Below are positions 17,360 through 39,061 of a stretch of 64,000 nucleotides of DNA, piece after piece. This stretch comes from an uncultured Gammaproteobacteria bacterium (lineage in GTDB: Bacteria > Patescibacteriota > Patescibacteriia > Magasanikbacterales > GWA2-37-8): contig CAZEDL010000003.1 of the NCBI GenBank assembly GCA_964510885.1, positions 31,686-95,685 of the forward strand, written 5' to 3'. Every line of letters begins with the position of its first letter. Within the stretch, counting starts at the first letter, position 1. Below the pieces are notes generated by a model. It was not told the origin of the DNA, did not search any database, and saw nothing but the letters and a program-made list of their open reading frames with translations. Both the position numbers and the translations under genes were made by a program.

Positions 17360-17689
17360 TTATTCTTTTGTCGCTTCAGAATTTTTGTCTGCGGCCGGAG
17401 TTAAAGATTTCGGGTTCGGGGAGTAGAGGGGGTTTTTGATTTTCCATTTATCGACAAATTGACCGATGCCTTTTTTTACTAATTTATTTTTGATGGTGGT
17501 GTGGCGTTGTGACCATTTGACCAGGCTCTCAAAGTTTAGTTTATAGCGGCCGCTGACAATGACGTAGGTCACTTCTTGAGCTTTAATAGCGCGGCGAATA
17601 GTTTGGGTATTTACCCCGAATAAGCGGGCGGCTTCGGAGATTGAAACACGAATAATTTCTTTGGCTGGAAGGGAGGCCTCCATATTCAA
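17360..17689 (-). CDS. HTH_17 (excisionase/MerR-like) DNA-binding protein
   Basis: ISEAARLFGVNTQTIRRAIKAQEVTYVIVSGRYKL is a classic excisionase-family helix-turn-helix. 109 aa, no integrase nearby. Confidence 0.75.
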   Translation of the reverse strand: MNMEASLPAKEIIRVSISEAARLFGVNTQTIRRAIKAQEVTYVIVSGRYKLNFESLVKWSQRHTTIKNKLVKKGIGQFVDKWKIKNPLYSPNPKSLTPAADKNSEATKE

Positions 17690-18327: not shown

Positions 18328-18882
18328 ATGAACAAGCTCACTGAAAAATTAATTCTCTTTCGCATTGGAACCAAGCGGGACCCAGAAGCATATGCTGAAT
18401 TATACGATGCATATGTCAAACAGATCTACCGCTTTGTATTTTTCAAAGTGAATAATCGGGAGCAGGCTGAAGACATTACGGCCGACGTTTTTTTGAAAGC
18501 GTGGAATTATCTCCAAGAGAATGCCGATATAAAAAGTTTCAGTGGACTGCTATACCGGATGGCACGCAATGCAATCATCGACCTGTACCGAGCGCGCACC
18601 GGCCAAGCTGAGCTCATCGGTGAAAACGATGATATCAGTGATAATGGAGAGTGGTATCGCGAAACGCATTTAAAAATTGCGAATCAAACAATTTTATCTG
18701 CCCTCCAAAAATTAAAACAAGAATATCAAGAAGTAATCACACTCAGATTTGTCGAAGAGCTCGACATTCCGGAAATCGCCGCAATCATGAATAAAAAAAA
18801 TGTGGCGGTCCGGGTGACACTGCACCGCGCTCTCAAAAAGCTGCAAGATGTGCTCGGAGAATCACCGTATGATGAAAAGTAA
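18328..18882 (+). CDS. ECF-type sigma-70 family RNA polymerase sigma factor
   Basis: Region 2 (YVKQIYRFVFFKVNNREQAEDITADVFLKAW) and region 4 HTH (ITLRFVEELDIPEIAAIMNKKNVAVRVTLHRALKKL). Confidence 0.85.
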   Translation: MNKLTEKLILFRIGTKRDPEAYAELYDAYVKQIYRFVFFKVNNREQAEDITADVFLKAWNYLQENADIKSFSGLLYRMARNAIIDLYRARTGQAELIGENDDISDNGEWYRETHLKIANQTILSALQKLKQEYQEVITLRFVEELDIPEIAAIMNKKNVAVRVTLHRALKKLQDVLGESPYDEK

Positions 18883-20245
18883 TCTTATCTCACAATTACA
18901 ACAGCTTCGTCATGGCGAAGTAAGCCCGCGTCCGGAATGGGTAGCGAAGAATCGTGCCGTGCTCCTCAGCCAGATCAAGAACACCTTACCGCATGAAGCT
19001 GAGGTTAGTGTGCCATTATCCGAACAAGTCTGGTCGGCTATGGCTTTATTTTTGCCGCGCCAACTGGTGTATAGCGTGGTGCGTCCGGTGGTGGTGGTCC
19101 TTATGGTATCGCTCTTAGGTACAGGAGGATTTGTGGCAACTAGCTCAGCTTCGAATGAAGCGCTCCCCGGCGACCGGTTATATCCCGTCAAGATTGCTCT
19201 AGAAAAAACCAAAGTAGCCCTGGTTGAAACAGTGGGCAATGAAAATGTCCGCACTCAGGCTCACATTGAGTACGCCAGTAATCGCGTGACCGAAATCAAA
19301 CGTATCACGGCGGGCAGCGCTGATCCCAATAAAAATTTTCATATTGCCGAAGCAGTATCTAATTTAAAAGAAGGGGTAGAGCGGGTTAACAACAGCTTGA
19401 ATCAGAATTTGTCGGGCGAAGTTATTAAAGATGTAAAAGCTAATACGGATGAAGTTAAGTCGGCTCTGAAGCAGGTGAGTAGCAATCTCGAGACGGTCAG
19501 CACGACCAGTGTCGATACGGCGGATCTGAATAAAGAATTAGTAGCTACTACTAACTTGGCCAAAGATACGGCGGTAAAAGCTATCGAAGTATTTGTCCAA
19601 AAAGTAGATGATAAATCAGTGTCTGCTGAAGCAGCCAAAGATGTACTCGCTGACGCACTCACCACTATTACGAGTGATGTCGACAGCTCTAAGCAAAATA
19701 TTGCGTTGGTAAAAAATATTGCCCAAGCAGCCGAAGCCGGAGTGAAAGATTTACAAACTGAAATTAAAAAGCAAAATTTAACCACTGTCATTCAGACTGA
19801 TCAAATTTCCCAAGAGTTATCAAAAGAATTGTCAAATGTGGCAACTCAAGCGACAGCAGCCGCCACTTCGATTGAACTGAAATCGGCTGAAGTCGGCAAA
19901 AAGATTAGTGAAGTGCAAGCACTTGTCCAGACTGACCAGCTCCAGGCGGCAGTGGATAAATTAAAAGAAGTAAATAATGATACGAAAAATATTTCTGCGA
20001 CAGCTGATTCGGCCATTAAGAAAGCTAATGATTTATTGCCAGTAACACCTGTTATAAAAGAGGCGGTGGGAAATACAGCTAGCACCACGGACGTTCATGT
20101 GGTGTTGACAACCACTACTTCAGTATTGCCGAAGATGCCGGATGTGCCGGTGATTACGGTGGTGGTGTCTGGAACCGTTTCGGCTACAAAAGTTTTGGTC
20201 GTGCCAAGTTCTACTCCGCCCACCACAACACTACTAAAAAATTAA
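18869..20245 (+). CDS. Anti-sigma-factor-like single-pass membrane protein with a long coiled-coil/DUF5667-like extracytoplasmic domain
   Basis: It overlaps the sigma-gene stop. There is one TM (VVVVLMVSLLGTGGFVATSSA), followed by low-complexity A/K/E/T-rich helices. The arrangement is typical of sigma/anti-sigma pairs. Confidence 0.6.
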   Translation: MMKSNLISQLQQLRHGEVSPRPEWVAKNRAVLLSQIKNTLPHEAEVSVPLSEQVWSAMALFLPRQLVYSVVRPVVVVLMVSLLGTGGFVATSSASNEALPGDRLYPVKIALEKTKVALVETVGNENVRTQAHIEYASNRVTEIKRITAGSADPNKNFHIAEAVSNLKEGVERVNNSLNQNLSGEVIKDVKANTDEVKSALKQVSSNLETVSTTSVDTADLNKELVATTNLAKDTAVKAIEVFVQKVDDKSVSAEAAKDVLADALTTITSDVDSSKQNIALVKNIAQAAEAGVKDLQTEIKKQNLTTVIQTDQISQELSKELSNVATQATAAATSIELKSAEVGKKISEVQALVQTDQLQAAVDKLKEVNNDTKNISATADSAIKKANDLLPVTPVIKEAVGNTASTTDVHVVLTTTTSVLPKMPDVPVITVVVSGTVSATKVLVVPSSTPPTTTLLKN

Positions 20246-20443: not shown

Positions 20444-23400
20444 ATGCGCAGGCGATTAAGGATTTATATTAATTTTATTATGAATAAATTAGGAACGAAA
20501 ATCCTGAATTCCGTTGTAACGTTGGCCGTTACGGTGGTCTTCTCCGGTTTGAATCTCCTCGCGCCAGTAGCTGCTAACGCCGCTGTCTGTCCGACGCTCA
20601 ACCCTGGAGACATGATCAAAGTAACCGGCAAACCGGCTATTTATGTAGTCAACAACAATCTTCAGGTACAATATTTCCCAAGTGGATATGTATTCAAGAG
20701 CTGGCGCCCGACCTACGGTGGTTACACCTCCGTATCGATGGCTTGCTTTGATTCTTTGAATCTTCCAACCAACCCTCCATACGGCGTTAACTTTGCCCCA
20801 GGGTCCTATGTCATCAAGCGTCCGTCTTCGGATCAGCTTTATGTCGTTGAACCAGGCAACGTTAAAGCGAAGATCACCACTGAAGCTGCTAAAGCTCTCT
20901 ATGGTAACTTCTTCCAGCCGCAAGTAATCAATGATGAATTCTGGCCAAACTACCCAGTACTTGGTAACGATGTTACCGAAGCCAAACCATTCCCTGGTTT
21001 CCTCTTCAGCAACAAAGGCACCACTTGGTACATGGATGTAGATGGCAAAGCTCGTCAGGTTACTGCCACTGGCTTAACTGCTAATGGCTTCCAGACTGCT
21101 TTTGTCCACCCAGTGGCTGATGCAGTTGTAGCTGGTCTTCAGACCGGTGCTACGATTGATGCTGAAGTTAAATCGATCACCGACAAAACCCAGAGTGGTG
21201 GTGTCGCTGCTCCTTCTAACCCAAGCAACCCAAGCAACCCAAGCACTCCAGGCGGATCTTTGAGCGTTTCGCTCTCTTCCGACAACCCATTTGCTGCGAC
21301 TGTTGTTTCCGATTCTGGCACCAATGGTGCACAGGCTATGGTTCCAGTGTTGAAACTTAACTTCTCTGCTGACAACAGCGGTGATGTCAAAGTTACCACA
21401 TTGAGTTTGAAGCGCGCTGGCGTATCGGCTGATACTGATATTGCCAACATGTACCTTTATGATGATGCTGGTGTACGCTTAGCTGGTAACCCGAGTGTTG
21501 CTAACAATATTATTAGCTTCACCAACAGCTCTGGCCTCTTCACTGTCACCAAAGGCACCACGAAATCCGTTAAAGTCCTCTTGGACCTCAAGAACGCGGT
21601 TTCTGCAGGCAAGACCTTCCAGTTCGTTGTAGCTGACGCTGCAAGCGTTACTTCTAACGCCACTGGTTCGGTTGGCGGCACCTTCCCATTAACGGGTAAT
21701 GTGTTCACCACCGCTTCAGTTACTGATCTTGGTAAATTAACTGTTTCTAGCGTGTCCCCGTCTTCCAACACTACTGTTGATCCGGGCACCACTGGTTACG
21801 AAATTTGGAGACTCCAGGCTGTAAGCAGCAACCAGGATATTGAAGTCCGCAAGCTTGTTTTCACCATCGTTGGTTCTATCAACGTTGGCGATATTCAGAA
21901 CATCTCCCTCTGGGATGGTTCCAAGCAGCTTGGCGCCACTGTGGTTGACATGGCTGCAGACAAGACGGTCACTTTTGATCTCGCTGCTGCTCCATACGTA
22001 ATTACCAAAGGACAGACTAAAACCCTCAGCCTTAAAGCTGATATCAAAGGCGGCACTAACCGCAGCTTCCGCGCTTCTCTTCAGAATGGCAGCGATGTAG
22101 TTAGCTATGACAAAAACTACAATGTCTACCTGAAGACGAATGGTACGGACAGCTTCTCAATCGTTCAGCCAAATACCGCTGGTACCGCTGTTAACATTTC
22201 CGTTAACACCGGCACCTTGACGCAGACTTTGGCCGCGGATTCTCCGACCGGAAATATCGCTTTGAACGCTACGGGTGTAACGCTTGCACGCTTTGCGTGG
22301 CAGGCTAATGGTGAAGATATAAAAGTCAGCTCGCTGAACGTTTCATCCACCATTTCTTCAAGCCGCACTCTTACCAATGTACGCTTGATGGTTAACGATA
22401 ACCAAGTTGGTACGACTATCAGCACTTTGACCGGTAACGGCGTTTCCAACTCTGGTTGGGGCACCTTTGGCAACAGCTTCATCATTAAAGCTGGCACCAC
22501 GGCTAAAGTAGAAGTTAGAGCTGATCTGACTGGTTCTGCCGCCCTCAATGACACTGTCGTTGTTGGTCTCCCAGCTGGTTCAAGCAATGCTCAGGGTGTT
22601 GTATCTCTCAGCTCACTTAGCACTTCTGAAAAGAATGCTAACACGTTGACCGTTAAATCCGGTACGGTATCGGTATCTCTTGACACCTCTTTTGGTAACA
22701 AGACTGCCAGCAATCCGAACGGTACGATCAATGCTTCAGGAGCTAAAGTTGGTTCCTTCATTATCACCTCTGGTGCTGGTGAATTCGTTAAAGTCAGCGG
22801 AATTACGTTGACCGAAACTGCTTCCAACAACGGTTCGACCTGTGTTGGTAGCTATATGCAGAACTTGACGCTTAAGGATGCTGCAGGCAAGACTCTTGGT
22901 ACTGCCTATGCAAATCCGTCGGCTACTTGTTCTAGTGCTAATTCCTTCAACTTTACGTTCCCTGAGGTAACGATCGAAAAAGGTGCTCAGTATGTCGTTG
23001 GCGTCTACGCTGACCTCAAAGCTGCTTTCAGCACGGCTGCTACCTCTCTTATTAAAGTTGATGCCGTAACTGCTACGGGTGGTGACACTAATGGCACTGC
23101 CAGCGTATCTGGTCAGGCTTTGGCCCTCCAGTACAACTACATTTCGACTGCCGGTAACTTCACTGTTGCCACCGATTCCAACACTCCGGTTTCCCGCAAC
23201 TTGCTTATGGGTGCCGTAGATCAGGAACTTGGTCGCTTCAACATTACTGCCAGCACGACTGAAGCTATCAACATCACGGAACTTGTGCTCAGCAACCGCG
23301 TCAGCTCTGCTGCCACCGGTACGCTCCGCAACGTCCGTTTGTACGACAACGACAATGGCGCTCTCATCGGCTCTGCTGTCCCGTCGTTCACCAACACGAA

Positions 23401-24190
23401 CTCCAACGGCACCTTGGTGCACGCGGTGTTCAGCGGCCTGAAATTCCAGGTACCGAAAGGAAACTCCAAAGTCGTTATCGTTAAGGCTGACCTTACGACC
23501 TACGATGATTTGGGTTCCCCAGCTACCACTGGTCAGACTGCCAATCTTGCTATCTTGAAGAACTACACTGGTAGCACCCTGTCTATCACTGCTACTGGCG
23601 CTTCTTCCGGTGTATCTATCACCCCGACGGTGATCAACTCTGGTACGAATATCCCGGATATCACTGGTAACTTCGTGGCTTACACGAACACCAGCACGTT
23701 ATACCGCGCTAAACTTACCACTGCTTGGAGCACGGATACTCCGTCCGGTGCTGCTGGCGGATCAGCTTCCCAGATCGTAGGCAAATTCGTTATCACGAAC
23801 CTTGCTAACGCTGGTAACTACTCCGCTACTGTCCAGTCGATCAACTTCGACTTGTCGACCACGATCTCCAACACTGCTGACCGCGCTTTGACTGTCTATA
23901 AAGACTCCATTGCTACGGGCAACATCGTTGCGACGACCTCTTGGCTCGCTGCTGGTAACCAGAACTTCTCTGACACTGCGATTACTGATGCCGGTTTCAC
24001 CGATGTCAGCATCTCGTCTGGTCAGGCTAAGACTTTCTGGGTCACCTTGGACACCAGCAATGCCGCTTCTACGAAGAATCTTTCCATCCGCATTGGTTCG
24101 AGCGACGTATCTTGGACCGACGGTGTAAACAGTGGCCTCACTGTTATGGATCAGGATCTTCCGCTTCAATTCAGGACCTTCACCTACTAA
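20444..24190 (+). CDS. Giant secreted surface-layer-like protein (1248 aa) with Ig-like repeats
   Basis: Signal peptide (…LAVTVVFSGLNLLAPVAANA|AV), a PSNPSNPSNPSTP linker, and repeated ~100-aa units (…DIKVSSLNVSS…, …DIEVRKLVFTIVGS…). It is Thr/Ser/Asn/Gly/Val-rich. Codon usage is markedly biased toward ggt/gct/act/cgt/aac/ttc/tac, unlike the neighbours, which suggests very high expression. An alternative start lies at ATG 20480. Confidence 0.7.
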   Translation: MRRRLRIYINFIMNKLGTKILNSVVTLAVTVVFSGLNLLAPVAANAAVCPTLNPGDMIKVTGKPAIYVVNNNLQVQYFPSGYVFKSWRPTYGGYTSVSMACFDSLNLPTNPPYGVNFAPGSYVIKRPSSDQLYVVEPGNVKAKITTEAAKALYGNFFQPQVINDEFWPNYPVLGNDVTEAKPFPGFLFSNKGTTWYMDVDGKARQVTATGLTANGFQTAFVHPVADAVVAGLQTGATIDAEVKSITDKTQSGGVAAPSNPSNPSNPSTPGGSLSVSLSSDNPFAATVVSDSGTNGAQAMVPVLKLNFSADNSGDVKVTTLSLKRAGVSADTDIANMYLYDDAGVRLAGNPSVANNIISFTNSSGLFTVTKGTTKSVKVLLDLKNAVSAGKTFQFVVADAASVTSNATGSVGGTFPLTGNVFTTASVTDLGKLTVSSVSPSSNTTVDPGTTGYEIWRLQAVSSNQDIEVRKLVFTIVGSINVGDIQNISLWDGSKQLGATVVDMAADKTVTFDLAAAPYVITKGQTKTLSLKADIKGGTNRSFRASLQNGSDVVSYDKNYNVYLKTNGTDSFSIVQPNTAGTAVNISVNTGTLTQTLAADSPTGNIALNATGVTLARFAWQANGEDIKVSSLNVSSTISSSRTLTNVRLMVNDNQVGTTISTLTGNGVSNSGWGTFGNSFIIKAGTTAKVEVRADLTGSAALNDTVVVGLPAGSSNAQGVVSLSSLSTSEKNANTLTVKSGTVSVSLDTSFGNKTASNPNGTINASGAKVGSFIITSGAGEFVKVSGITLTETASNNGSTCVGSYMQNLTLKDAAGKTLGTAYANPSATCSSANSFNFTFPEVTIEKGAQYVVGVYADLKAAFSTAATSLIKVDAVTATGGDTNGTASVSGQALALQYNYISTAGNFTVATDSNTPVSRNLLMGAVDQELGRFNITASTTEAINITELVLSNRVSSAATGTLRNVRLYDNDNGALIGSAVPSFTNTNSNGTLVHAVFSGLKFQVPKGNSKVVIVKADLTTYDDLGSPATTGQTANLAILKNYTGSTLSITATGASSGVSITPTVINSGTNIPDITGNFVAYTNTSTLYRAKLTTAWSTDTPSGAAGGSASQIVGKFVITNLANAGNYSATVQSINFDLSTTISNTADRALTVYKDSIATGNIVATTSWLAAGNQNFSDTAITDAGFTDVSISSGQAKTFWVTLDTSNAASTKNLSIRIGSSDVSWTDGVNSGLTVMDQDLPLQFRTFTY

Positions 24191-24231: not shown

Positions 24232-24267
24232 ACCCCCCTCCGGGAAACCGGAGGGGGGTTGTTTTTT
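24232..24267 (+). terminator. Strong intrinsic terminator after the surface-protein gene
   Basis: cacccccctccgg-gaaa-ccggaggggggtt followed by TTTTTT. Confidence 0.8.
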
Positions 24268-24314: not shown

Positions 24315-26549
24315 ATGCTGATTCGTTATAGCTCAAAAATTTTAAACATTTTGCTTCTGGCTAGTCTGTGTTTGCCGCTTCTATTCACACCGGCTACCAT
24401 GTTTCCGTGGCATTTTGGCAAAACGATGGTGTTTCAAATAATGGTAGAAGCGGCGACCCTATGCTACACAATTAGCCTGCTTGGTGGGTTACGGTCAGTC
24501 CGGCGATTATCGTTACTTGATTGGTCGTTAGTTATTTTTTTGTTGTTTAGCGTAGTTACGGCTTTGATCGGTGGATCGTTTGGGTTTAGCTGGTGGGGGA
24601 ATCAGAGCCGCGCCAATGGAATTTTTGTATTTATTCATTTTGCGGCCTGGTATGCGCTCCTTAGCCACGAGTGGCGAACCAAAGAAGACTGGGTGCTCGG
24701 CTGTATGATCGCTGTCGGGGTCGGACTAGTGGTAAGCTTTACTGGATTTTTTCCAGCCGTGCTTCCGGGTGCCTGGATAGGTGTCGGTGGCGGGCGTGCC
24801 AGTGGGATCGTGGGCAATCCAGCTTTTTTGGCGTCCTATCTGGTCCCAGTCATAGCAATTTCTTTTTTAGGGTGTCTAATAAGTGTTAAACAGTGGCAGC
24901 GCTATGTGTTTTTAGCTGCTGTGCCTGTCTTCGTAACAGCGATTATATATACGGCCACACGCGGGGCCTGGCTGGGTCTGCTGGCTGGGAGTGCTACGGC
25001 GCTTGTAGTAGCGAGCCTACATCTGCCGAGATGCCGAACTAAACAGGTAACGCTTGGCTTGCTCACAGCTGGTGTATTGGCTGCTGGGACCCTGTGGGTG
25101 TTGGTTGCTACGAATTCGACACTTCTCGCTGTAGTGCCACGTCTCAAGAGCCTGAGTGCTATTTCGTTCACGAGTGGTACGGCAGCAACTCGCCTCATGG
25201 CGTGGCATATTGCTTGGGAGGGGATACGGCTCAAGCCGGTTACTGGGTACGGTTGGGGAAATTACGGGATCGTGTTTAATCAGTTTTATAATCCGCATTT
25301 TTTACGTTCTGGGTTGAGCGAGACGGTGTGGGACAAGCCGCACAATTGGGTATTGGAGTTGGCTGTGAACGGTGGAGTCATTTTGGTGCTCAGTTATCTG
25401 GCGATCGTTGCGATCGCAGCTTATTATGTGGTGCGGGGCCGAATGGTGTTCCTTGGCGAACAGCCAGTTATGACAGCACTCGTCAGAGCGGTACTAGTCG
25501 GGGGCTTAGTAGCCTGTTTGGTGCAAGGATTGTTTTTGTTTGAAACTAGTTTTTCGCTGTGGGGATGGTTTTTCCTCTTGGCATTTATTAACGCCTTGAT
25601 CCTTATGCCGACCACCGATTCTGGGCGTACATTTAGATTGCAACCAGAAATATGTGCGGGAATTAGTATCGTGTCGGCCGTAGCGGTTGTGTGTCTCGTT
25701 TATTATGGTTCGATTATTCCACTGCGCGCTTCGCATCAGCTTCTGTTAGCTGACAATGAACGCGATATTCAGGCTTGGGCAACGTTTGGCAAACAGGCAC
25801 TTTTGGCACCAAAACCGTGGCGCGAGGAAGTTGCCGTATTACTAGCTCGCAGACTCACACGTTTTAACAATCAGCCTAACTTTCAACTGACTGACCGGGC
25901 TAAAATTACAGCAGAGGCGGTGATTACTGAGCTTGATGCAGCTTCTATTCGTGCGCCTCGTGTACTCGATTTTCCACTTTGGGCCGGCCAGGTGTACCAG
26001 GTGCTTGGGCAACAAACAACCACTACGGATTATTATGTTCGAGCCGAGTCTGAGTTTGCCCGGGCGAGAGCAATTTCTCCGCGTAAACAAGAGGTATTAT
26101 TTTTGCTGACAAAATTATATTTATCGGAGCAGAAATTTGAGCAGGCAATCGCCATGCAAACAGAAGCGATTGCCCTTGATCCTGAGATTGGTCTTAGTCA
26201 TTGGTTACTCGGAATCGCATATGCTGCCGCTCAAAAGCCAGCTGAGGCAGTAGCGGCGATTGAGGCGGCAGAGCAGAAAGAGTTTGCCTTGACTCGAGCC
26301 CAAGAATTGTATGTAATTGAGTTGTATGCCGGACTTAAGCGGTATGACCAGGTGATAGTCCGCTTTAAGCGGATTCATGAAGCAGAACCGACGAATTTGG
26401 AATGGGCAGTAAAATTAGCTACGGCCTATGCTCTTGGTGGGCAAAAGGCAGAGGCACTGGCCTTGGCTAGGCAGATTGCCACTGACAAACCAGATATGGC
26501 CGATGAAGTGGCGGCTTTTATCAAGCAATATCGGCTTGATATTCCTTAA
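24315..26549 (+). CDS. Wzy_C (O-antigen ligase / O-oligosaccharyltransferase family) polytopic membrane protein with a C-terminal TPR domain
   Basis: About 12 TM with the Wzy_C loop region (YTATRGAWLGLLAG...TRLMAWHIAWEGIRLKPVTGYGWGNY). The C-terminal ~300 aa are TPR-like (LGIAYAAAQKPAEAVAAIEAAEQ...). Confidence 0.8.
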   Translation: MLIRYSSKILNILLLASLCLPLLFTPATMFPWHFGKTMVFQIMVEAATLCYTISLLGGLRSVRRLSLLDWSLVIFLLFSVVTALIGGSFGFSWWGNQSRANGIFVFIHFAAWYALLSHEWRTKEDWVLGCMIAVGVGLVVSFTGFFPAVLPGAWIGVGGGRASGIVGNPAFLASYLVPVIAISFLGCLISVKQWQRYVFLAAVPVFVTAIIYTATRGAWLGLLAGSATALVVASLHLPRCRTKQVTLGLLTAGVLAAGTLWVLVATNSTLLAVVPRLKSLSAISFTSGTAATRLMAWHIAWEGIRLKPVTGYGWGNYGIVFNQFYNPHFLRSGLSETVWDKPHNWVLELAVNGGVILVLSYLAIVAIAAYYVVRGRMVFLGEQPVMTALVRAVLVGGLVACLVQGLFLFETSFSLWGWFFLLAFINALILMPTTDSGRTFRLQPEICAGISIVSAVAVVCLVYYGSIIPLRASHQLLLADNERDIQAWATFGKQALLAPKPWREEVAVLLARRLTRFNNQPNFQLTDRAKITAEAVITELDAASIRAPRVLDFPLWAGQVYQVLGQQTTTTDYYVRAESEFARARAISPRKQEVLFLLTKLYLSEQKFEQAIAMQTEAIALDPEIGLSHWLLGIAYAAAQKPAEAVAAIEAAEQKEFALTRAQELYVIELYAGLKRYDQVIVRFKRIHEAEPTNLEWAVKLATAYALGGQKAEALALARQIATDKPDMADEVAAFIKQYRLDIP

Positions 26550-26566
26550 ATTTATTTTTCACTAGT

Positions 26567-27271
26567 ATGTCTCGTAAAAAAATTATTACCCTACTTGCAG
26601 TGGTTGCGGGGCTAGCTTTCGCCATTGCGATCGTGATGCGTCTCGTGACTCAAGGTGTGATTGGCGATCCTAACCGTGCTTTATTTAACCGTATAAAAGA
26701 TAAACCGCAATTAGTGGAGCTCTATCGAATGGCTGAAGACGAAGACGAAAAAATGCGCGCCGAACCAGAAAATCCGTCACGGTATCTGAATGCAGGTTTG
26801 GCCTGGAAAGGGCTGGGAGATGGATCTCGCGAGCGGGTATTTTTGGAAAAGTCGTTGGCTATTTATGAAGACGGTATGGAGCGTTTTGGTCAGAAGAATA
26901 TTTTATTTTATCTGAATGCGGGCAAGGTAGCTGAGTCGCTTGGTGATTATGCTAAGGCGGAACAGTATTATCGAACAGCGATCACAATTTCTCCGCTAGA
27001 TGAAAGCAGCTATCTCTACATTGCTGACATGTATATCTATAAGATGAAGAAAACTAACGAGGAGATTTTGGCAGTGTTCAATGATGCTGAGCAGAAGGTT
27101 AGTGATAAGCTGGCAGTGATTTGGGCGCGTGGCACGTATCTACGGCGGATTAATGATTATGAGAAGGCGCTCAAAGATTATGAGGCTTTGGTAGAGAATT
27201 TTCCCCAAGAGGCGGGTTACAAGCAGATCGTAGCAGAGCTGAAGGCTAAAATTTCGGCCGGTAAAAAATAG
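26567..27271 (+). CDS. TPR-repeat protein with an N-terminal membrane anchor
   Basis: TM (IITLLAVVAGLAFAIAIVM) followed by TPR-like repeats (AGLAWKGLGD..., LNAGKVAESLGDYAKAEQYYRTAI...). Confidence 0.7.
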   Translation: MSRKKIITLLAVVAGLAFAIAIVMRLVTQGVIGDPNRALFNRIKDKPQLVELYRMAEDEDEKMRAEPENPSRYLNAGLAWKGLGDGSRERVFLEKSLAIYEDGMERFGQKNILFYLNAGKVAESLGDYAKAEQYYRTAITISPLDESSYLYIADMYIYKMKKTNEEILAVFNDAEQKVSDKLAVIWARGTYLRRINDYEKALKDYEALVENFPQEAGYKQIVAELKAKISAGKK

Positions 27272-27349
27272 TATGAGGTACTTATCCACAGATTATATTT
27301 TTCTCCTGGCGATTTAGAGTATACAATGCTTGGTTAGAGGAGGAAAAAA

Positions 27350-27398
27350 ATCTCGACTGTTTAGGTTGCTTTGGCAAACAGTAAGTCGAGATTTTTTT
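27350..27398. terminator. Bidirectional long-hairpin terminator
   Basis: aaaaaaatctcgactgttt...aaacagtaagtcgagattttttt. Confidence 0.6.
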
Positions 27399-27669
27399 GT
27401 AGGTTAAAGATGCCTTAGGAGTTCGAAAGATCAAAAACAGTGGTTACGCTATATTTTCTACTGTCGCTGGTTGAATTTTGTCGACTTTTTTAAAACAAGT
27501 GGGGAATTGGAGCGTTAGCTTACTTTTGAATAAGCTTGTGCTCAGTGACAGATTCTGGCTGGTGCAAAAATTGATTTTTGCTTTGATTTTACTAGTATAG
27601 ATTGACGGTAGTGCCCTTTTGCTTTACACTGAAAGAGTTGTAATTTATAGTGTTTGTCTTTGTCTACTT

Positions 27670-29718
27670 ATGAAAAAAATTATTGAATGGTTTGTCAAGC
27701 TGACCATTTATGCCACCTTTGTTATGCCGCTCGTGCTGTTGCCGAGCTCATTTATTTTTCCGTTTATTGTTCCGAAGATTTTATTTTTCCGTTCGCTGAT
27801 ACTGCTCCTTGTCGCCGGGTATATCGCTCTTCTGGTTTTGAATTTTCAGGAATATCGGCCACGCCTAACTTGGGTGACTGTGGGAGTTGGGTTGTTCTTG
27901 GCAAGTTTTTTACTGTCGACATTTATCGGCGTCGATTCGTACCATAGTTTTTGGGACAATCATGAGCGCATGCTGGGGTTATTTACCCTTTTTCATTATG
28001 TGATTTACTATCTGATTGCAACGGCGGTTTTCAAACGCTACGCTGATTGGCGGATTGCATTGCAGGTGTTTTTGGCGCTCGGATCAGTGGTGATGTTTAT
28101 CGGGGTGATTCAGCATTTTAATCCTGATTTTTTACTTAATCAGGGGAGTGTGCGCGTCTCAAGTACGCTCGGCAACGCTATTTATGTTGGTGGGTACGGC
28201 TTGTTTTTGGCCTTTGTCGGTCTGCTGCTGTTCATGAAAGAAAAAGTTCCTCAGCTCCGGTTGCTCCAGGGGGTATTTATTTTATTGGCATTAGTCGGGA
28301 TGATACTCAGTGGAACGCGCGGTTCACTGCTCGGTTTTTTTGCGGGTATTGGCGGTGTGTTGCTCGGTTACGGGTTATTAGCAAAGGATCATCCTCGCCT
28401 CAGGCAAGCAACACTTGGTGCTGTTGCTCTTTTGGTGGCGGTGCTTGGTATATTGTATATTAATCGCCAGACTACATTTGTCCGTAGTATTCCGACATTA
28501 GGAGGGCTCTTAAATATTTCGCTTAGCGGGGGTACGGCCAGTACACGGTTAATCGCTTGGAAAATTGCTATTGAAAGCTGGAAGGAGAGGCCGGTATTTG
28601 GCTGGGGGCCCAATAATTTTTTCTATGCCTTTAACAAATACTATAACCCGGCCTCACTCGAGCATGGCTATGGTGAAACTTGGTTCGATAATGCGCATAA
28701 TATTATTTTGAACACCCTGACAGTACAGGGACTGTTCGGAGTGATTAGTTATCTTGCTATGTTTGGCCTGGGGTGGTTCACGCTCCTTAGCAGATCGCGT
28801 AAACCAGGAGCAGATCTGCATGTAGTTATAATCGGGTCTGGGTTTTTACTTGCGCACTTGGTGCAAAATATTACGGTGTTTGAAAATCCGACTTCATATC
28901 TTTATTTTTTCTTTTGGCTCGCGATGGTGAATCGCCTTGGCAGTCCGCAGTTTGAAGCGAGTTCTAAGATCGAACACCACGCCCCCGACCGCCCGCTTAA
29001 TGCTGGTGTTCTCGGAGTGATCGGAGTCACAGCGGTACTTTTTATTTATATCTTCAATATTCAACCGGCCCGTGCCAATCAAAAAACGTTACTGGCTTTA
29101 CAAAAGTTGAATCAGGATCCAGTAGGGGAGGGGCTCGCCACGATGCAATCTGCGCTGCAGTTTAATTCGCCTCATATTGATGATATTAGAAGCGATGTGT
29201 CTCGCACAGCAGCTGAAGTGTTGAGCCGATATTATCAAAAATTGACCAAAGAACAAAGCAATCAGTTGATTGACATAGCGGTTGCAGCTCTGCAGAAAAA
29301 TATTTCTCTCCATACTGCCGATATTCGCACATATTTACTGCTTGGCCAACTGCTCCAGACCAAGGCGATAGTGAATAATGATGGTCAATATGTAATGCAA
29401 GCTGAGCAGTACCTTGAAACCGCACTCGGGTATAGCCCGAAACGGCAGCAAATATTATTTACGCTAGCTAATTTAAAGGTGCAGATTAATAAAGTGGATC
29501 AGGCGGCTGCACTTCTTGAACAGGCTATAAAAGACAACCCGAAGATTTCTGAAAGTTATTGGCGTTTGGCCTATTTGTATAAGCTTGCTAACCGTCAGGA
29601 TTTAGCGAAGGCGGTATTTGCGAAAGCCCATGCGGACGGTGTGATATTTGACGATCAGGGGAAGCAAGTAGAAGCTATGATTGCTGCCGAGCCGAGCGCA
29701 GCGACTGATAAAAAGTAA
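27670..29718 (+). CDS. Second Wzy_C-family membrane protein with a C-terminal TPR domain (paralogue of 24315)
   Basis: SGTRGSLLGFFAG...TRLIAWKIAIESWKERPVFGWGPNNF parallels the 24315 protein. It also has a TPR tail. Start at ATG 27670 (MKKIIEWFV). Confidence 0.8.
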   Translation: MKKIIEWFVKLTIYATFVMPLVLLPSSFIFPFIVPKILFFRSLILLLVAGYIALLVLNFQEYRPRLTWVTVGVGLFLASFLLSTFIGVDSYHSFWDNHERMLGLFTLFHYVIYYLIATAVFKRYADWRIALQVFLALGSVVMFIGVIQHFNPDFLLNQGSVRVSSTLGNAIYVGGYGLFLAFVGLLLFMKEKVPQLRLLQGVFILLALVGMILSGTRGSLLGFFAGIGGVLLGYGLLAKDHPRLRQATLGAVALLVAVLGILYINRQTTFVRSIPTLGGLLNISLSGGTASTRLIAWKIAIESWKERPVFGWGPNNFFYAFNKYYNPASLEHGYGETWFDNAHNIILNTLTVQGLFGVISYLAMFGLGWFTLLSRSRKPGADLHVVIIGSGFLLAHLVQNITVFENPTSYLYFFFWLAMVNRLGSPQFEASSKIEHHAPDRPLNAGVLGVIGVTAVLFIYIFNIQPARANQKTLLALQKLNQDPVGEGLATMQSALQFNSPHIDDIRSDVSRTAAEVLSRYYQKLTKEQSNQLIDIAVAALQKNISLHTADIRTYLLLGQLLQTKAIVNNDGQYVMQAEQYLETALGYSPKRQQILFTLANLKVQINKVDQAAALLEQAIKDNPKISESYWRLAYLYKLANRQDLAKAVFAKAHADGVIFDDQGKQVEAMIAAEPSAATDKK

Positions 29719-30883
29719 GAGTGGAAGAGAGGCTTGAAGGTAGCTGGAAATCAGTAGTAATTTTTGTCTTGAGAGCGGCTCCGAAATGGGCCGCTTTAGT
29801 TTGATCAGACAGCGCTTCTTTGATTGCCGCAGCCAATCTCGCTGGATCGCGCGCGGGCACTAGCCAGCCGGTTTCGCCAGGCATAACAATTTCCGGGATG
29901 CCGCCAACTGCAGTTGCAACTACGGGAAGACCAGCCCGACCGGCTTCGAGAAGTGTGTAGGGTAAGCCTTCTTTTCGTGACGGGATAATAAGCATCTGAC
30001 AAGCTGGTAGTAGGCGGGCCGCTTCGGGGATTGGTCCGCACCAACTGATAATCGAATCTAGCCCGCTTGCGGTGGCTAGGCGGTGTAAATTGTTTTTATC
30101 TGGCCCAGAACCAATCAGCGCGACCGTAGTATCTGCCAGATCTGCTTTTATAGTAGCGAGGGCTGTAATTAAAATATCCAATCCTTTGGTTTTGTAAAAA
30201 TTAGCAATCACACCGATTATTTTTTTGGCATTTTTTCCGGTGGAAGATAAGTAGGGGTTAAGCTCATTTCGTGCGGCTAGTGATGAGAGTGCCGGTGTTT
30301 GCATATCAATACCGAGCGGGATAAGCCGAAGTTTTGACACAGGGATAGTAAGCTTTGTTTTTGCCACAGCTTGATCTGCTTCTGACAGGGTGATAATGCC
30401 GTCTTTATACCTGGCAGTGTGTTTTTCAAGAGAGCGGTAAATTAAAGGCAGTGGCCAATAGAGTGGTTCGTTGAACACCCAGCCGTGAGCGGTGTAGATG
30501 ACTGAGAAGGTGTTTGGTTTTAGGTGTTTGGTTTTAGGTGGCGAGTTGTGATTGATGGTGGCGAGTGAGCCGATGATGCCGGCTTTGCTGCTGTTGAGGT
30601 GAACAATGTTGGGAGATACTTCGTTTATTAATGTGTTCAATTCTGCGATAGCGGCGAAGTCGCGTGGTGATATAGCGCGTACTAGGTGAGTTAGTTGCAC
30701 TACTTTTACCGATCCATGTTGTTTCAGTCGTTCTTGCAGGTCGGCTGACCCGCCTGGTTCGCCAACAGCGACCGTCACGTCATGTTCGCTGGCATAGGCG
30801 GTCGCCAAATCATAGACGTAGCGCTGTGCCCCGCCCCAGGTGCCTTGGGTAATAATATAGAGAATTTTAAGTCGAGGATTCAT
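29675..30883 (-). CDS. GT4-family glycosyltransferase
   Basis: MNPRLKILYIITQGTWGGAQRYVYDL... with C-terminal EGLPYTLLEAGRAGLPVVATAVGGIPEIV. The 3' end overlaps the convergent gene by 44 nt. It contains a 14-nt tandem repeat (30515-30548) that stays in frame. Confidence 0.85.
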   Translation of the reverse strand: MNPRLKILYIITQGTWGGAQRYVYDLATAYASEHDVTVAVGEPGGSADLQERLKQHGSVKVVQLTHLVRAISPRDFAAIAELNTLINEVSPNIVHLNSSKAGIIGSLATINHNSPPKTKHLKPNTFSVIYTAHGWVFNEPLYWPLPLIYRSLEKHTARYKDGIITLSEADQAVAKTKLTIPVSKLRLIPLGIDMQTPALSSLAARNELNPYLSSTGKNAKKIIGVIANFYKTKGLDILITALATIKADLADTTVALIGSGPDKNNLHRLATASGLDSIISWCGPIPEAARLLPACQMLIIPSRKEGLPYTLLEAGRAGLPVVATAVGGIPEIVMPGETGWLVPARDPARLAAAIKEALSDQTKAAHFGAALKTKITTDFQLPSSLSSTLTFYQSLRSARQQS

Positions 30884-31033: not shown

Positions 31034-31981
31034 ATGCGTATTTTAGTCACTGGTGGCGCAGGTTTTATCGGTTCTCATTTGGTAGAGCGCCTGCTTGAGG
31101 CTGGGCATGCGGTGGTAGTAGTAGATAATTTATTTACTGGCTCGCTTGATAATTTAGCGGCGGCTGCAGCTAATCCAAAATTCACTTTTGTTGAACACGA
31201 TATTGTGGAACCGTTATTTTTGGAAGGAAAGATTGACCAAGTATATAACTTGGCTTGTCCGGCTTCGACACCTCACTATCAATCAAATCCGGTGCACACG
31301 ATCAAGACTAATACGCTTGGCCTTATTAACATGCTTGGGCTGGCCCGCCACCATGGCGCCCGATTTTTGCAAACTTCCACTTCTGAGATTTATGGTGATC
31401 CGGAAGTCCATCCTCAAGTCGAAGAATACTGGGGACATGTAAATCCGATCGGCCCCCGGGCCTGTTATGATGAAGGTAAGCGCTGTGCTGAAGCGCTGTG
31501 CTTTGATTATCACCGGATGCACGATATGGAAATAAAGATCGTGCGTATTTTTAACACCTATGGCCCCCGCATGTCATTTACTGATGGTCGGGTAATTTCG
31601 AATTTTGTGGTGCAGGCGTTGCAAAATCAACCGATTACTATTTATGGTAATGGCGAGCAAACGCGCAGTTTTTGTTTTGTTGATGATTTAGTATTGGGAC
31701 TTATCAAAATGATGGGTAGCGATGGTGCATTTATGGGGCCAGTGAACCTCGGCAATCCAGGCGAACGCACGATGCGTGAGATGGCGGAAAAAATTGTGGC
31801 GTTAACTAATTCACAGAGTGAGATCGTCTACCGTGATCTGCCCGTTGACGACCCGCGGCGGCGCTGCCCGGATATTGCCAAAGCTAAAACTAAGCTCGAT
31901 TGGCAGCCGACGATTGATTTAGAACCAGGTCTTGTTCGTACGATTGCCAACTTTCGCGAGCGCCTGAAGTCCGGTAGCTAG
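31034..31981 (+). CDS. UDP-glucuronate decarboxylase (UDP-xylose synthase)-like extended SDR
   Basis: [16 protein letters not shown]..., [28 protein letters not shown], and the catalytic YxxxK context. 315 aa. Confidence 0.85.
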
Positions 31982-31988
31982 TCTGGCT

Positions 31989-33122
31989 ATGAAAAAAAGA
32001 GTGCTTATTTTTTCTACGGCATATCATCCGTTTATTGGTGGGGCTGAAGTGGCGGTGAAAGAAATTACGGATCGGTTGGGTGATATGTTTGAGTTTGAAA
32101 TGGTGACGGCACGCATGCGCAGATCTGTGCCAACCAAAGAAAAGATCGGCAACATATTAGTACATCGGTTAGGTTTGGGGGTTCCGTTTATTGATAAATT
32201 ATGGCTGGCTTTTTGCGGAGCTTCTCGTGCAAAAAAGCTAAATGATTTTGATATCGTATGGGGAATAATGGCCAGCTATGGTGGGCTCGCAGCTTCTAAT
32301 TATAAAAAGAAACACCCGTTGGTTAAATTTTTACTTACTCTCCAAGAAGGAGACAGTAAGGAGCATATTTATAAAAGATCCCGATGGCTCGGAGGTGCAT
32401 TCATTGACATTTTTAAAAGAGCGGATCGGATTCAGGCGATTAGCGCATATTTGGCGGAGTGGGCACAGGAAATGGGGGTAACTTGTCCGGTTGTGGTGGT
32501 TCCAAATGGAATTACTATTCAGCAATTTGACCATCATGGTAGAAAAGCTGACATAAAAAGAGTAATTACTGCCTCTCGTTTAGTAGAAAAGAATGGCCTT
32601 GAATATTTAATTAAAGCAATGAAGATTGTTAAAGATAGTTCTTCGAAGCCGGTTGTTTTAAAGATTCTTGGAGATGGTGAATTGAAGCAAGATTTAGAAA
32701 AATTAGCGTCTGATTTAGGCTTAACAGATAAGTTTGTCATTAGAAATGTTCAGTTTCAGGGTTTTGTCCCAAATAAATTGGTGTATGATTATTTAAACCA
32801 AGCTGATGTTTTTGTCAGGCCTTCTTTGTCCGAGGGGCTTGGTAATTCGTTTCTTGAGGCCATGGCGGCCGGTGTTCCGGTGGTAGCCACTCCAGTCGGG
32901 GGCATACCTGATTTTTTAAAAGATGGACAGACTGGTTGGTTTTGCAAGGTAAAAGATCCTGGCAGTGTCGCTGAAAAAATACTGTATATATTGGATGAGA
33001 AAAATAAAGAACCTGTTTCTCAGGTGGTTAAAAATGCTAAAGAGCTGGTTGAAACACGCTATCGTTGGGAAACTATCGCAGGAGACATGAGAAATATCTT
33101 GAATCTTTTATGCGTTTTTTAA
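31989..33122 (+). CDS. GT4-family glycosyltransferase (low-GC gene)
   Basis: MKKRVLIFSTAYHPFIGGAEVAV... and SEGLGNSFLEAMAAGVPVVATPVGGIPDFL. Confidence 0.8.
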   Translation: MKKRVLIFSTAYHPFIGGAEVAVKEITDRLGDMFEFEMVTARMRRSVPTKEKIGNILVHRLGLGVPFIDKLWLAFCGASRAKKLNDFDIVWGIMASYGGLAASNYKKKHPLVKFLLTLQEGDSKEHIYKRSRWLGGAFIDIFKRADRIQAISAYLAEWAQEMGVTCPVVVVPNGITIQQFDHHGRKADIKRVITASRLVEKNGLEYLIKAMKIVKDSSSKPVVLKILGDGELKQDLEKLASDLGLTDKFVIRNVQFQGFVPNKLVYDYLNQADVFVRPSLSEGLGNSFLEAMAAGVPVVATPVGGIPDFLKDGQTGWFCKVKDPGSVAEKILYILDEKNKEPVSQVVKNAKELVETRYRWETIAGDMRNILNLLCVF

Positions 33123-34228
33123 TTGCAGCTGATATATTCCCTCCAGAATCAGGCGGGCCGGCTACGTATTCGGTGACGCTCGCTAATGAATTAGTTAAGC
33201 TTGGCGACAGTGTTACGATTGTGTCTCTTAATCCAGAATCTGATAGAAAAATTTTAGATATAAGCGTTGAATTATTCCGAGTTGCTTTTAAAAATAAATT
33301 ACTTCGCTACGCTCACTATTTTTGGCTGCTTTTTAAACATGCTAAGCAAGTTGATGTTGTATATGCGATGGGGCCAGTGAATGCCGGGTGGCCGGCTTCG
33401 GTTGTGGCTCGTCTGAGGCATAAAAAATTTGTCGTAAAAGTGGTGGGCGACTATGCCTGGGAACAGGGGCAAGTTTTGCAGCTGGTGTCTGATGACATTG
33501 ATAGTTTTCAGAACAAAGATTATGGCGGAAAAGTCGGTCGTCTCAAAAGGATAGAGCGCCAAACTGTCCTCAGGGCTGATAGGGTTATAACTCCTTCAGA
33601 GTATTTGAGACGAATGGTCACTGGATGGGGCGTCCCTGAAGATAAAGTTATGGTAGTATACAATTCGGTTGCTGTCTCGACAGTTGCACCGGCTGCTAAG
33701 CCAACGGGCGAGCAGTGGCTTGTCAGTGTTGCTAGGCTCACGCCATGGAAAGGTTTCCCAGCGTTAATTGAAGCACTGGCAATTTTTTTGCCGCACCGCC
33801 CACAGTTAAAGTTGAAAATAATCGGAACTGGACCGGAGCTCCAAAAATTGCAGTCGTTAGTGCAGACGAAAGGTTTGGCTGCGTCGGTAGGTTTTTTAGG
33901 TAATATGCCGCGCAAAGAAGCGCTGTCGTATGTTAAGGCAGCGGACATTTTTATACTTAATAGCGGTTACGAAGGTCTGTCTCATGTAATTTTAGAGGCG
34001 CAGGCGCTTGGCATCACCGTTTTGGCAAGCAAAAAGGGTGGGAATGTTGAATTGCTTGATGCTGCGCATTTGTTTGAATTTAATAATAGTAAAGAAATTG
34101 CTAATAAGGTAGATAGCGTGCTCAATGGGTCGTTAGGTAATTCGACGCTGCCAGAATTTAAGAATACGTCGATGGCAGACATGGTTATGAAAACTAAACA
34201 AATACTTCAATCGGTATGCGCCAACTAA
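33110..34228 (+). CDS. GT4-family glycosyltransferase
   Basis: MRFLIAADIFPPESGGPATYSV... and YEGLSHVILEAQALGITVLASKKGGNVELL. Start at ATG 33110, overlapping the upstream gene. Confidence 0.8.
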   Translation: MRFLIAADIFPPESGGPATYSVTLANELVKLGDSVTIVSLNPESDRKILDISVELFRVAFKNKLLRYAHYFWLLFKHAKQVDVVYAMGPVNAGWPASVVARLRHKKFVVKVVGDYAWEQGQVLQLVSDDIDSFQNKDYGGKVGRLKRIERQTVLRADRVITPSEYLRRMVTGWGVPEDKVMVVYNSVAVSTVAPAAKPTGEQWLVSVARLTPWKGFPALIEALAIFLPHRPQLKLKIIGTGPELQKLQSLVQTKGLAASVGFLGNMPRKEALSYVKAADIFILNSGYEGLSHVILEAQALGITVLASKKGGNVELLDAAHLFEFNNSKEIANKVDSVLNGSLGNSTLPEFKNTSMADMVMKTKQILQSVCAN

Positions 34229-35232
34229 TGATTAGCCTTGATCGTAAAATAATCGAAGAGTCCAGGGTTGCTCAAAGAATGAAAGAGTATGGAAATAAGG
34301 ATAAGATATTTATTTTAATACCTGGGCCTACGAAAAAAATGAACACTAGCATTAGTGAGAATGTTAAGGTTGAAATGATTTCTGGTTCAAAGTTCGTTCA
34401 ATTTTTTTCTTTGATATGGAAGGGGCTTCAGTATGTTTCTAGTAATGATGTAACTTTTATTACTACACAAGATCCCTTTTTTACTGGTTTAGTGGGCTTG
34501 CTAATTCGTTTTTTTTCGAGTGTCCTTTTAAAAGACATTACTCTTGAAGTCCAGCTTCATGGCGATTTTTATAGTAATTCTTATTATAAGAAAAGTATTA
34601 GGTATTTTTTAGGAAAATTTGTAATTAAAAGAGCTGATAAAATAAGAGTTGCGAGCAAGAGAGCTAGGGTCAGTCTCGAAAATCGAACTGACCTTAAGAT
34701 AGGGAAAGGAAAAGTGCGCATCAAACCAGTTTTTATTGATGAACGTTCGTTCGTTGATTATGGAGGAGAAAAAAATTACTTGAGGAAACGTTACCATACT
34801 ATAAATACTGGAAAAATTTTCCTTTGGGTTGGAAGGATGGAACCTGTAAAAAATCTTGAATTTCTTTTAAATATTTTTGTAAAGGCTGTAAAACAGTGGG
34901 GCCATTCAGACTGGTTGCTTGTTTTAGTCGGAGAAGGAAGTCAGAGGAAAGAATTGGAAGATATTGTTGATAAATCGGGTTTATTAAATACAAATATCCA
35001 GTTTGAGTCTTGGACTGAAGAACCTGTTAAATATTATAAGAGCGCAGATTGTCTTGTTTTTCCGAGCCTTAGTGAGGGTTATGGTCAGGTTCCAATGGAA
35101 GCATACTATTCTGGTTGTCCTGTTATTATGTCAGATGTAGGTGTGGCAAATTACGAACTCAAACCTAGCGACCGAGTTAAAATTTTACCTTTTGACGAAC
35201 GCGCCTGGATTGAGGCGATGAGTAAGATATAG
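34216..35232 (+). CDS. GT-B glycosyltransferase (Glycos_transf_1-like C-terminus), markedly AT-rich
   Basis: The C-terminal motif SLSEGYGQVPMEAYYSGCPVIMSDVG is typical of GT4. GC is about 33% against ~50% in neighbouring genes. Confidence 0.65.
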   Translation: MRQLMISLDRKIIEESRVAQRMKEYGNKDKIFILIPGPTKKMNTSISENVKVEMISGSKFVQFFSLIWKGLQYVSSNDVTFITTQDPFFTGLVGLLIRFFSSVLLKDITLEVQLHGDFYSNSYYKKSIRYFLGKFVIKRADKIRVASKRARVSLENRTDLKIGKGKVRIKPVFIDERSFVDYGGEKNYLRKRYHTINTGKIFLWVGRMEPVKNLEFLLNIFVKAVKQWGHSDWLLVLVGEGSQRKELEDIVDKSGLLNTNIQFESWTEEPVKYYKSADCLVFPSLSEGYGQVPMEAYYSGCPVIMSDVGVANYELKPSDRVKILPFDERAWIEAMSKI

Positions 35233-35236
35233 TTAT

Positions 35237-35848: not shown

Positions 35849-35854
35849 TTTGGT

Positions 35855-36886: not shown

Positions 36887-36891
36887 TTGGT

Positions 36892-38298: not shown

Positions 38299-38348
38299 AA
38301 GGCAGGGATTTTTTTGGTAGAATATAAAGAAATTTAGCCTTATTTCCT

Positions 38349-39050: not shown

Positions 39051-39061
39051 TTTTAGGGGGT

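Follow-up and report, generated by a model that had tools for sequence, protein, structure and literature searches.

Wzy_C-TPR ligases beside a conserved surface-protein gene in Patescibacteria: candidate protein O-oligosaccharyltransferases

We analysed a stretch of 64,000 nucleotides (hereafter the window) from contig CAZEDL010000003.1 of assembly GCA_964510885.1, in which two genes, here called ligase A and ligase B, encode membrane proteins that join a Wzy_C ligase core to a tail of tetratricopeptide repeats (TPRs). The pair lies just downstream of a gene for a large surface protein and ahead of an island of glycan genes. We propose that A and B are protein O-oligosaccharyltransferases (O-OTases) and that the upstream surface protein is most likely their substrate, a tentative reading to which we give a probability of about 0.45. 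The source organism is a Magasanikbacteria-like member of the Patescibacteria, or Candidate Phyla Radiation (CPR), and the arrangement recurs in related genomes. The features central to the argument are as follows, with positions counted from the first letter of the window and protein lengths in amino acids (aa).

20444..24190, + strand: surface protein, 1248 aa (the public record starts at 20480 and has 1236 aa)
24232..24259, + strand: terminator hairpin directly 3' of the surface-protein gene, with a 12-bp stem, 10 GC pairs and a T-run
24315..26549, + strand: ligase A, 744 aa, a Wzy_C-TPR protein with a WaaL-like core of 12 transmembrane (TM) helices, a further helix (TM13) and a TPR solenoid
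26567..27271, + strand: TPR protein, 234 aa, with Pfam TPR_8, TPR_2 and TPR_1 and a TM anchor at aa 6-24
27272-27669: spacer of 398 bp between the TPR gene and B, with a terminator-like hairpin and T-run at 27350..27399 (+)
27670..29718, + strand: ligase B, 682 aa, a Wzy_C-TPR protein whose reading frame opens at TTG 27619

Core, catalytic residues and TPR tail of the two ligases

Pfam recognised both parts of each protein. Ligase A matched Wzy_C at aa 206-361 (E 3.3e-15, 56.6 bits against a cut-off of 31.7 bits) and, in its tail, TPR_19, TPR_16 and TPR_2 at aa ~560-735, while ligase B matched Wzy_C with E 1.5e-18 (67.5 bits, cut-off 31.7 bits) together with TPR. The two are paralogues that share 29% identity across ~660 aa (E 3e-61). 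The likely start of B is ATG 27670 (MKKIIEWF...), since the N-terminus then aligns with that of A and promoter-like hexamers stand at 27602-27651. These results bear out what a preliminary description of the locus, made from the sequence alone, had reported: two paralogous Wzy_C membrane proteins with TPR tails, a separate TPR protein between them, and a position between a Thr/Ser-rich surface protein and a sugar-biosynthesis island. In our analysis the separate TPR protein measures 234 aa, the surface protein has 23% Ser+Thr, and the glycan island spans 29.7-63.5 kb.

To place the core among solved enzymes, a profile was needed: searched as a single sequence against PDB sequences, A returned TPR proteins only, and it was a profile of the membrane half that reached the ligase WaaL (7tpg; E 2e-12, 49.9 bits) and 9rmk, a 610-aa protein deposited as 'Oligosaccharyltransferase' (E 1.2e-8, 37.4 bits). 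In the profile alignments, R216, R293 and H343 of A fall on the catalytic TRGA, VRLKIW and HAHN motifs of WaaL and on NSR, PRQIEW and HSHN of 9rmk. The AlphaFold2 (AF2) model of A (pLDDT 92.3, pTM 0.89) found WaaL 7TPG as its top solved match in Foldseek (E 3e-6, target-normalised TM-score 0.62), and the other matches were TPR solenoids, including the TPR of O-GlcNAc transferase (OGT; 1w3b, 7ntf). An NCBIfam scan gave only sub-threshold IctB and TPR-family matches and was uninformative.

The same residues are conserved across the family. Wzy_C was matched in 46 of 46 aligned members, among which R99, N168, R293, D340 and H343 are invariant and R216 is near-invariant; 22 sequences taken from across CPR lineages show no variation at R216, R293, D340 and H343, and each has Glu or Asp at position 410. 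Judged by its position, the acid at 410 may be the counterpart of E404 in PglL and E379 in PglS. The match of the Arg/Arg/His set to both WaaL and 9rmk implies that A and B are of the ligase type and would use a glycan linked to polyprenyl pyrophosphate. By sequence, A and B belong to the ligase-type WaaL/PglL (Wzy_C, GT-C-B) superfamily, the branch to which the preliminary description had assigned them, and NCBI names their relatives 'O-antigen ligase family protein'. The family is large: the core of B alone, searched against 1.8 billion cluster representatives, retrieved 2042 proteins at E<=1e-30, and nearly all full-length members among the top 150 matches measure 640-860 aa, so that the core-plus-tail design defines it.

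In A, the AF2 model and hydropathy place the 12-helix core first, followed by a basic loop (aa 433-445) and TM13 (aa ~446-468), after which the model folds aa ~470-744 into 14 helices of a TPR-like solenoid. The tail of A measures ~275 aa and that of B ~218 aa. The catalytic loop of A, aa 275-345, lies outside according to WaaL topology, and short Arg/Lys-rich loops occupy the opposite face, in keeping with the positive-inside rule. From 13 TM helices, the topology of WaaL and this charge bias, we infer that the TPR tails face outward. The preliminary description had called the tails periplasmic; 'extracytoplasmic' is the better word because the host is a CPR bacterium, and apart from this its account of the genes is accurate. 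The 234-aa TPR protein is likewise predicted to expose its TPR domain on the outer face, behind its N-terminal membrane anchor. In tBLASTn searches across related loci, its gene was found only with A-type genes and always following A.

The spacer that separates B from the TPR gene is a site of variable insertions. Nothing is inserted there in the window, and in relatives it holds a gene whose product is either a DUF2207 protein or a protein of 758 aa or 1084 aa (L001:13192-14925, L002:13255-15531, L003:9419-12673; L numbers denote the related loci retrieved). The hairpin in the spacer was read from the sequence and was not flagged by the terminator scanner.

The surface protein and the conserved cassette

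The protein encoded upstream of A has a signal peptide and matches nothing in Pfam or NCBIfam. In its AF2 model (pLDDT 87) the signal peptide is followed by an N-terminal alpha/beta domain of ~205 aa, a linker and an array of Ig-like beta-sandwiches; the linker, aa 254-268, is disordered and made of Pro, Ser and Thr. Foldseek returned generic strings of Ig-like domains, including those of the S-layer proteins 8c8l and 5ftx. We recovered 198 homologues; those listed are ~750-1350 aa long, mostly >1150 aa, and either lack annotation or bear the name 'hypothetical protein'. Ser/Thr-rich, elongated and Ig-like, as S-layer and adhesin glycoproteins are, the protein is by analogy a candidate acceptor for the ligases.

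The ~205-aa domain (aa ~45-252, at 20576-21199) has the consensus CPxLxxGDMxKVxGKxAIY...YFPSGxEFKSW... and no Pfam match. It recurs at the C-terminus of unrelated secreted CPR proteins, usually after a Ser/Thr/Gly-rich linker (L120:3007-4665, L122:7924-9612, L123:6472-9612, L124:2-1984 and L125:1689-3683), where the passengers look, by eye, like FN3-, beta-propeller- and Calx-type repeats. This recurrence on unrelated secreted proteins is the behaviour of a modular envelope-anchoring module, and the domain looks like an undescribed one.

The hairpin that follows the surface-protein gene is also a standing feature. A GC-rich hairpin with a T-run was present at the equivalent position in 11 of 11 folded sequences (the window and L001-L004, L011, L013, L014, L020, L023 and L028), with its position conserved and its sequence not. 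Promoter and terminator scans as a whole gave no enrichment over shuffled sequence, and only this hairpin stands out. By analogy, such a strong and conserved hairpin suggests that the surface-protein gene is highly expressed and that read-through from it into the ligase genes is attenuated.

The host belongs to a CPR lineage. Every homologue with a meaningful name belongs to Candidatus Magasanikbacteria or to other Patescibacteria, and 80 of the 80 loci retrieved from species-representative genomes are from CPR lineages (Magasanik-, Uhr-, Azam- and Falkowbacteria, Paceibacter, Parcubacteria and one Saccharibacteria). Many records of metagenome-assembled genomes with the CPR cassette (L006, L007, L010-L017 and others) are titled 'uncultured Gammaproteobacteria bacterium'; these titles agree neither with the genes that the records contain nor with the named Magasanikbacteria and Patescibacteria relatives, and are probably generic submission labels.

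The four closest loci, L001-L004, in which A shows 32-50% identity, all retain one order of genes: a DUF11-like gene and a small helix-turn-helix (HTH) gene on the minus strand, an extracytoplasmic function (ECF) sigma factor, a DUF5667 protein, the ~1250-aa surface protein, A, the TPR protein, a variable insert, B, a GT4 glycosyltransferase on the minus strand and an epimerase. The surface protein shows 52-77% identity in these loci, more than enzyme A does. Synteny was then followed more widely by tBLASTn of the window proteins against the retrieved CPR loci, 63 of which had sufficient upstream sequence. The sigma factor was found in 56 of the 63 and the DUF5667 protein in 55, and in 51 the surface-protein frame ends <700 bp before the first Wzy_C-TPR gene. 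The remaining 12 comprise nine loci with a distance of 0.7-1.3 kb and three whose frames came out truncated, probably as artefacts. Beyond the 63, a single locus gave no match to the surface protein at all. On the other side, the GT4 gene on the minus strand directly follows the last Wzy_C gene in 52/62 loci. The epimerase adjoins GT4 in the four closest loci, and most of the others have weaker homologues at varying positions.

The number of tandem Wzy_C-TPR genes ranges from 1 to 4, three or four paralogues being present in L030, L033, L035, L043, L049, L051 and L069. Lineages beyond the Magasanikbacteria-like group usually have a single gene, and it is nearer to B (28-31% identity) than to A (24-27%), most clearly in L102, L103, L116 and L119 (up to 48-55% to B and 25-26% to A). 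Because single-copy genes are B-like and A always comes with the TPR gene, these comparisons suggest that B, the widespread type, is probably ancestral, and that A and the TPR protein are a later duplicate inserted between the surface-protein gene and B.

Protein, wall polymer or another acceptor

Working from the observed family, catalytic residues, fold, domain order and synteny, we infer the topology, the glycan donor and the protein acceptor in a mechanism that would run as follows. An oligosaccharide would be built on a polyprenyl-pyrophosphate carrier by the neighbouring GT4, epimerase and island enzymes and flipped outward, no flippase having been found in the window. The outward active site (R216, R293, D340, H343, E/D410) would then transfer the whole glycan in one step onto a Ser, Thr or Tyr hydroxyl in a protein held by the ~220-275-aa TPR solenoid after TM13, helped in the case of A by the membrane-anchored TPR protein. 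The most likely substrate would be the ~1250-aa surface protein, and other surface proteins with Ser/Thr-rich linkers may serve too. A and its TPR protein may be devoted to another glycan or to another class of site, as in Acinetobacter, where two O-OTases are reportedly encoded in one genome (Harding et al. 2015, cited in PMC6120980).

What speaks for a protein acceptor is a TPR tail predicted to face outward, an additional TPR protein beside A, the resemblance to WsfB and to WsaA/WsaB, and the dispensability of the ligase in some lineages. The S-layer enzymes, like WpaA and WpaB below, were compared by published description. WsfB of Paenibacillus alvei, an enzyme of a monoderm host, has a Wzy_C core and, like PglL, C-terminal TPR motifs (PMC2943079). 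WsaB of Geobacillus stearothermophilus has no TPR motif of its own, and the small TPR protein WsaA is encoded ahead of it (PMC2943079), which recalls the separate TPR protein encoded beside A. In both systems the transferase belongs to a large glycan cluster shown with the S-layer gene, and the P. alvei S-layer glycosylation locus includes an Asn-synthase homologue (PMC2943079). The window has all three: the C-terminal TPR, the separate TPR protein and the Asn-synthase homologue. It differs in that its family is confined to CPR, with 1-4 tandem copies, in that A combines a TPR tail with a separate TPR protein, and in a surface protein that is unrelated to SpaA and SgsE and has its own anchoring domain instead of SLH motifs.

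The general O-OTases of the PglL, PglS and PilO/TfpO type (9rmk) share with A and B the WaaL-like core, the catalytic His and Arg, the conserved acidic residue after the catalytic His, and 13 TM helices leading to an outer C-terminal domain; PglS is described with 13 such helices and, at its C-terminus, a large periplasmic domain (PMC12800693). They differ in that the profile match is weak (37.4 bits) and that the tail in the window is a much longer, canonical TPR solenoid. As an analogy only, A also resembles OGT, in which a glycosyltransferase is joined to a TPR solenoid on which the TPR of A superposes. The TMTC O-mannosyltransferases are likewise TPR-fused glycosyltransferases, and in OGT and TMTC alike the solenoid binds protein substrates; the catalytic domains and sugar donors of both are unrelated to those of A and B.

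Several results weigh against protein O-OTases. For the profile of the core, WaaL is the better match at 49.9 bits, the 9rmk oligosaccharyltransferase reaching 37.4 bits. Neither PglL_A (PF15864) in A, B or the family nor Wzy_C_2 (PF11846) in A or B was reported at E<=1. Wzy_C_2 does appear at that threshold in 13/46 relatives, with a best score of 26.0 bits against a cut-off of 28.5 and only in the TPR-like end segment, and being sub-threshold and confined to that segment it was rejected as a sign of kinship with PglL. No Wzx flippase, ABC exporter, priming phosphoglycosyltransferase or LytR-CpsA-Psr (LCP) protein was found among the proteins of the window that were scanned. The richness of the linker in Ser and Thr does not track the presence of the ligase, a relation that we had considered and rejected. 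Eight distinct loci, all of one CPR subgroup (L086, L087/L096, L090, L095, L099, L105, L114 and L118), have the sigma factor, the DUF5667 protein and the surface protein, but the 5-9 kb of sequence available downstream contain no Wzy_C-TPR gene. A ligase thus does not always accompany the surface protein, and its module is better seen as accessory, varying by lineage. Four PMT_2 proteins and two GT-C-like proteins of the island could glycosylate protein directly. Finally, sequence does not reveal the acceptor, as no test on it tells a protein from a glycan or lipid acceptor. The preliminary description's proposal of O-OTases is partly supported: the core and outward-tail architecture is that of PglS/PglL and WsfB, PglL_A and Wzy_C_2 lend it no backing, and the position beside the surface-protein gene is conserved, with a short distance in 51/63 loci, though eight loci have no adjacent ligase. 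These eight also have no glycan island in the available 5-9 kb downstream, and in L086 and L087 the next gene encodes the GTPase BipA.

A less likely, though still plausible, account is that A and B ligate or polymerise a secondary wall polysaccharide or a lipid-anchored glycan, and that this polymer is the ligand of the anchoring domain. The precedent is the pair WpaA and WpaB of Bacillus anthracis, Wzy/WaaL-clan proteins of a monoderm whose depletion disturbs S-layer assembly and which are proposed to polymerise and ligate wall polysaccharide (PMC6030368). Together with this precedent, a wall polymer is favoured by the ~205-aa domain of the surface protein, which behaves like a wall-anchoring module in need of a ligand, and by an island of >25 genes, large enough to suit a complex polymer; the best match of the core profile is WaaL, a glycan-to-glycan ligase, and one homologue of the surface protein (P0070) matches PG_binding_1. 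WpaA and WpaB differ from A and B in their proposed wall-polysaccharide substrate and in belonging to Pfam PF13425, and their description mentions no TPR tail (PMC6030368). O-antigen_lig (PF13425) is absent from the Pfam matches of A, B and the family. The outward solenoid and the membrane-anchored TPR protein would be left unexplained by a wall polymer, and such tails have been reported for protein-targeting enzymes of the clan (PMC2943079, PMC12800693). No LCP ligase, flippase or priming enzyme was found nearby among the window proteins scanned, and some lineages carry the anchoring domain on several proteins with no adjacent Wzy_C-TPR gene, for which a distant copy is possible.

It is improbable that A and B act on some other outer acceptor, either a glycolipid anchor (lipoglycan) or a protein glycan core attached beforehand, in the latter case with the PMT_2 enzymes of the island performing the first protein O-glycosylation in a two-step scheme. 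The island does hold four PMT_2 proteins, two proteins that are GT-C-like by eye and five small GT2 proteins, but the number and position of the PMT_2 genes differ between loci while Wzy_C-TPR, GT4 and epimerase stay as conserved neighbours. More doubtful again is the possibility that A and B are Wzy-type polymerases that elongate the repeat units of a capsule or exopolysaccharide with no final acceptor: the Wzy_C domain occurs in some polymerases too, the depositors of 7TPG named it 'polysaccharide polymerase/ligase', and the 1 to 4 tandem copies would suit such a role, but the invariant His/Arg/Arg set aligns with the catalytic residues of WaaL and PglL-type oligosaccharyltransferases, no Wzz-like regulator or Wzx (Polysacc_synt/MOP) flippase was found among the window proteins scanned, and the TPR tail would again go unexplained. 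Wzy polymerases are not known to have that conserved His.

A classical WaaL role, joining O-antigen to lipid A-core, we rejected on lineage and architecture: the name 'O-antigen ligase family protein', the best structural and profile matches and the shared Arg/Arg/His positions all point to WaaL, but the relatives are all Patescibacteria/CPR, where a lipid A-core acceptor is not expected, the 64-kb window contains no gene for lipid A, the core or Lpt, and WaaL of Cupriavidus metallidurans (7TPG/7TPJ) ends after its 12-TM core at 403-413 aa, without TM13 or the C-terminal domain that bring A to 744 and B to 682 aa. The few CPR cells described are monoderm (PMC8871954), which makes ligation of lipopolysaccharide of the WaaL type very unlikely.

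Neighbouring genes and the patescibacterial surface

The other genes of the cassette and the island are as follows.

15525..17264, - strand: DUF11-like protein, 579 aa, membrane-anchored, with a weak DUF11 match (E 7e-6), CLIPPER-like
17360..17689, - strand: small open reading frame, 109 aa, assigned by position (an HTH_17-like gene stands there in relatives)
18328..18882, + strand: ECF-type sigma factor, with Pfam Sigma70_r2 and Sigma70_r4_2 (regions 2 and 4)
18848..20245, + strand: DUF5667 protein, 465 aa (DUF5667 E 2.9e-6), with a single TM helix at aa ~71-100
29675..30883, - strand: GT4 glycosyltransferase (Pfam), convergent with B and overlapping the 3' end of B by 44 bp
31034..31981, + strand: NAD-dependent sugar epimerase/dehydratase (Pfam)
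31989..63565: variable glycan island, with GT4, GT2, methyltransferases, an AsnB homologue, a carbamoyltransferase and PMT_2
41257-43158: AsnB (asparagine-synthase) homologue
39924-41273, 51881-53584, 53601-55049 and 58631-59959: four PMT_2 proteins
36892-38298 and 47860-49635: two further unassigned multi-TM proteins, GT-C-like by eye
38349-39050, 43164-43865, 47110-47850, 56262-56984 and 56962-57669: five GT2 proteins of ~235 aa

The DUF11-like gene is a conserved upstream neighbour with homologues at the same position in many loci, and the gene at the position of the small open reading frame has a weak or faint HTH_17 match in L001, L086 and L087. The DUF5667 gene overlaps the sigma-factor gene, and its product is a candidate anti-sigma or partner protein; the two may form a dedicated sigma/anti-sigma pair for the surface coat. 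We found no paper describing DUF5667 in the literature searched.

Glycan genes, epimerases included, span the 29.7-63.5 kb of the window noted above. The PMT_2 proteins and the two GT-C-like proteins share, by eye, a D-x-Y-Y...A-x-N motif in the first loop, and the five small GT2 proteins, in our reading, resemble polyprenyl-phosphate sugar synthases; the set as a whole suggests extensive addition of single sugars outside the cell. In L003 a UbiA-family prenyltransferase gene (L003:17702-18628) follows the conserved epimerase, a hint that a pathway for polyprenyl-phosphate sugar donors accompanies some forms of the cassette. Elsewhere in the window, Rfam and tRNA scans gave only a tRNA-Val at 10795-10869. 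Two open reading frames overlap at 13449-13991 (-) and 13466-13927 (+), where the 12-14 kb region is locally GC-rich (0.527); the former is probably no real gene, its product being rich in Arg, Pro and His and without a Pfam match.

Wzy_C ligases with a TPR tail are an enzyme kind already known, as in WsfB. The CPR family and its conserved cassette appear to be undescribed in the literature we searched, which held no O-antigen-ligase family described for Patescibacteria; one preprint lists unspecified S-layer protein candidates in the group. CPR bacteria make up a very large and mostly uncultured share of bacterial diversity. Life in attachment to other cells makes the surface central to their biology, yet hardly any of its components are known.

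It is possible, though less likely than not, that the cassette of sigma factor, DUF5667 protein, Ig-array protein and Wzy_C-TPR ligase encodes the core surface coat of a large part of the Patescibacteria, with the ligases as the first CPR protein O-OTases and their copies diversifying the coat. The ~1250-aa protein would then be the S-layer or fibril protein of CPR cells, held to the wall by its ~205-aa domain, the Wzy_C-TPR family would number >2000 clusters at 50% identity, and the 1-4 tandem copies would diversify the coat for attachment to hosts or evasion of phages. Should A and B turn out instead to serve a wall polymer, they would identify the anchor system of these surface proteins. 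If they do glycosylate the surface protein, as we propose, a named acceptor and its enzymes would be in hand for surface glycosylation in CPR, compact TPR-bearing O-oligosaccharyltransferases would be worth trying in bioconjugation, and the cassette together with the anchoring domain would offer a handle for finding CPR surface proteins in metagenomes.

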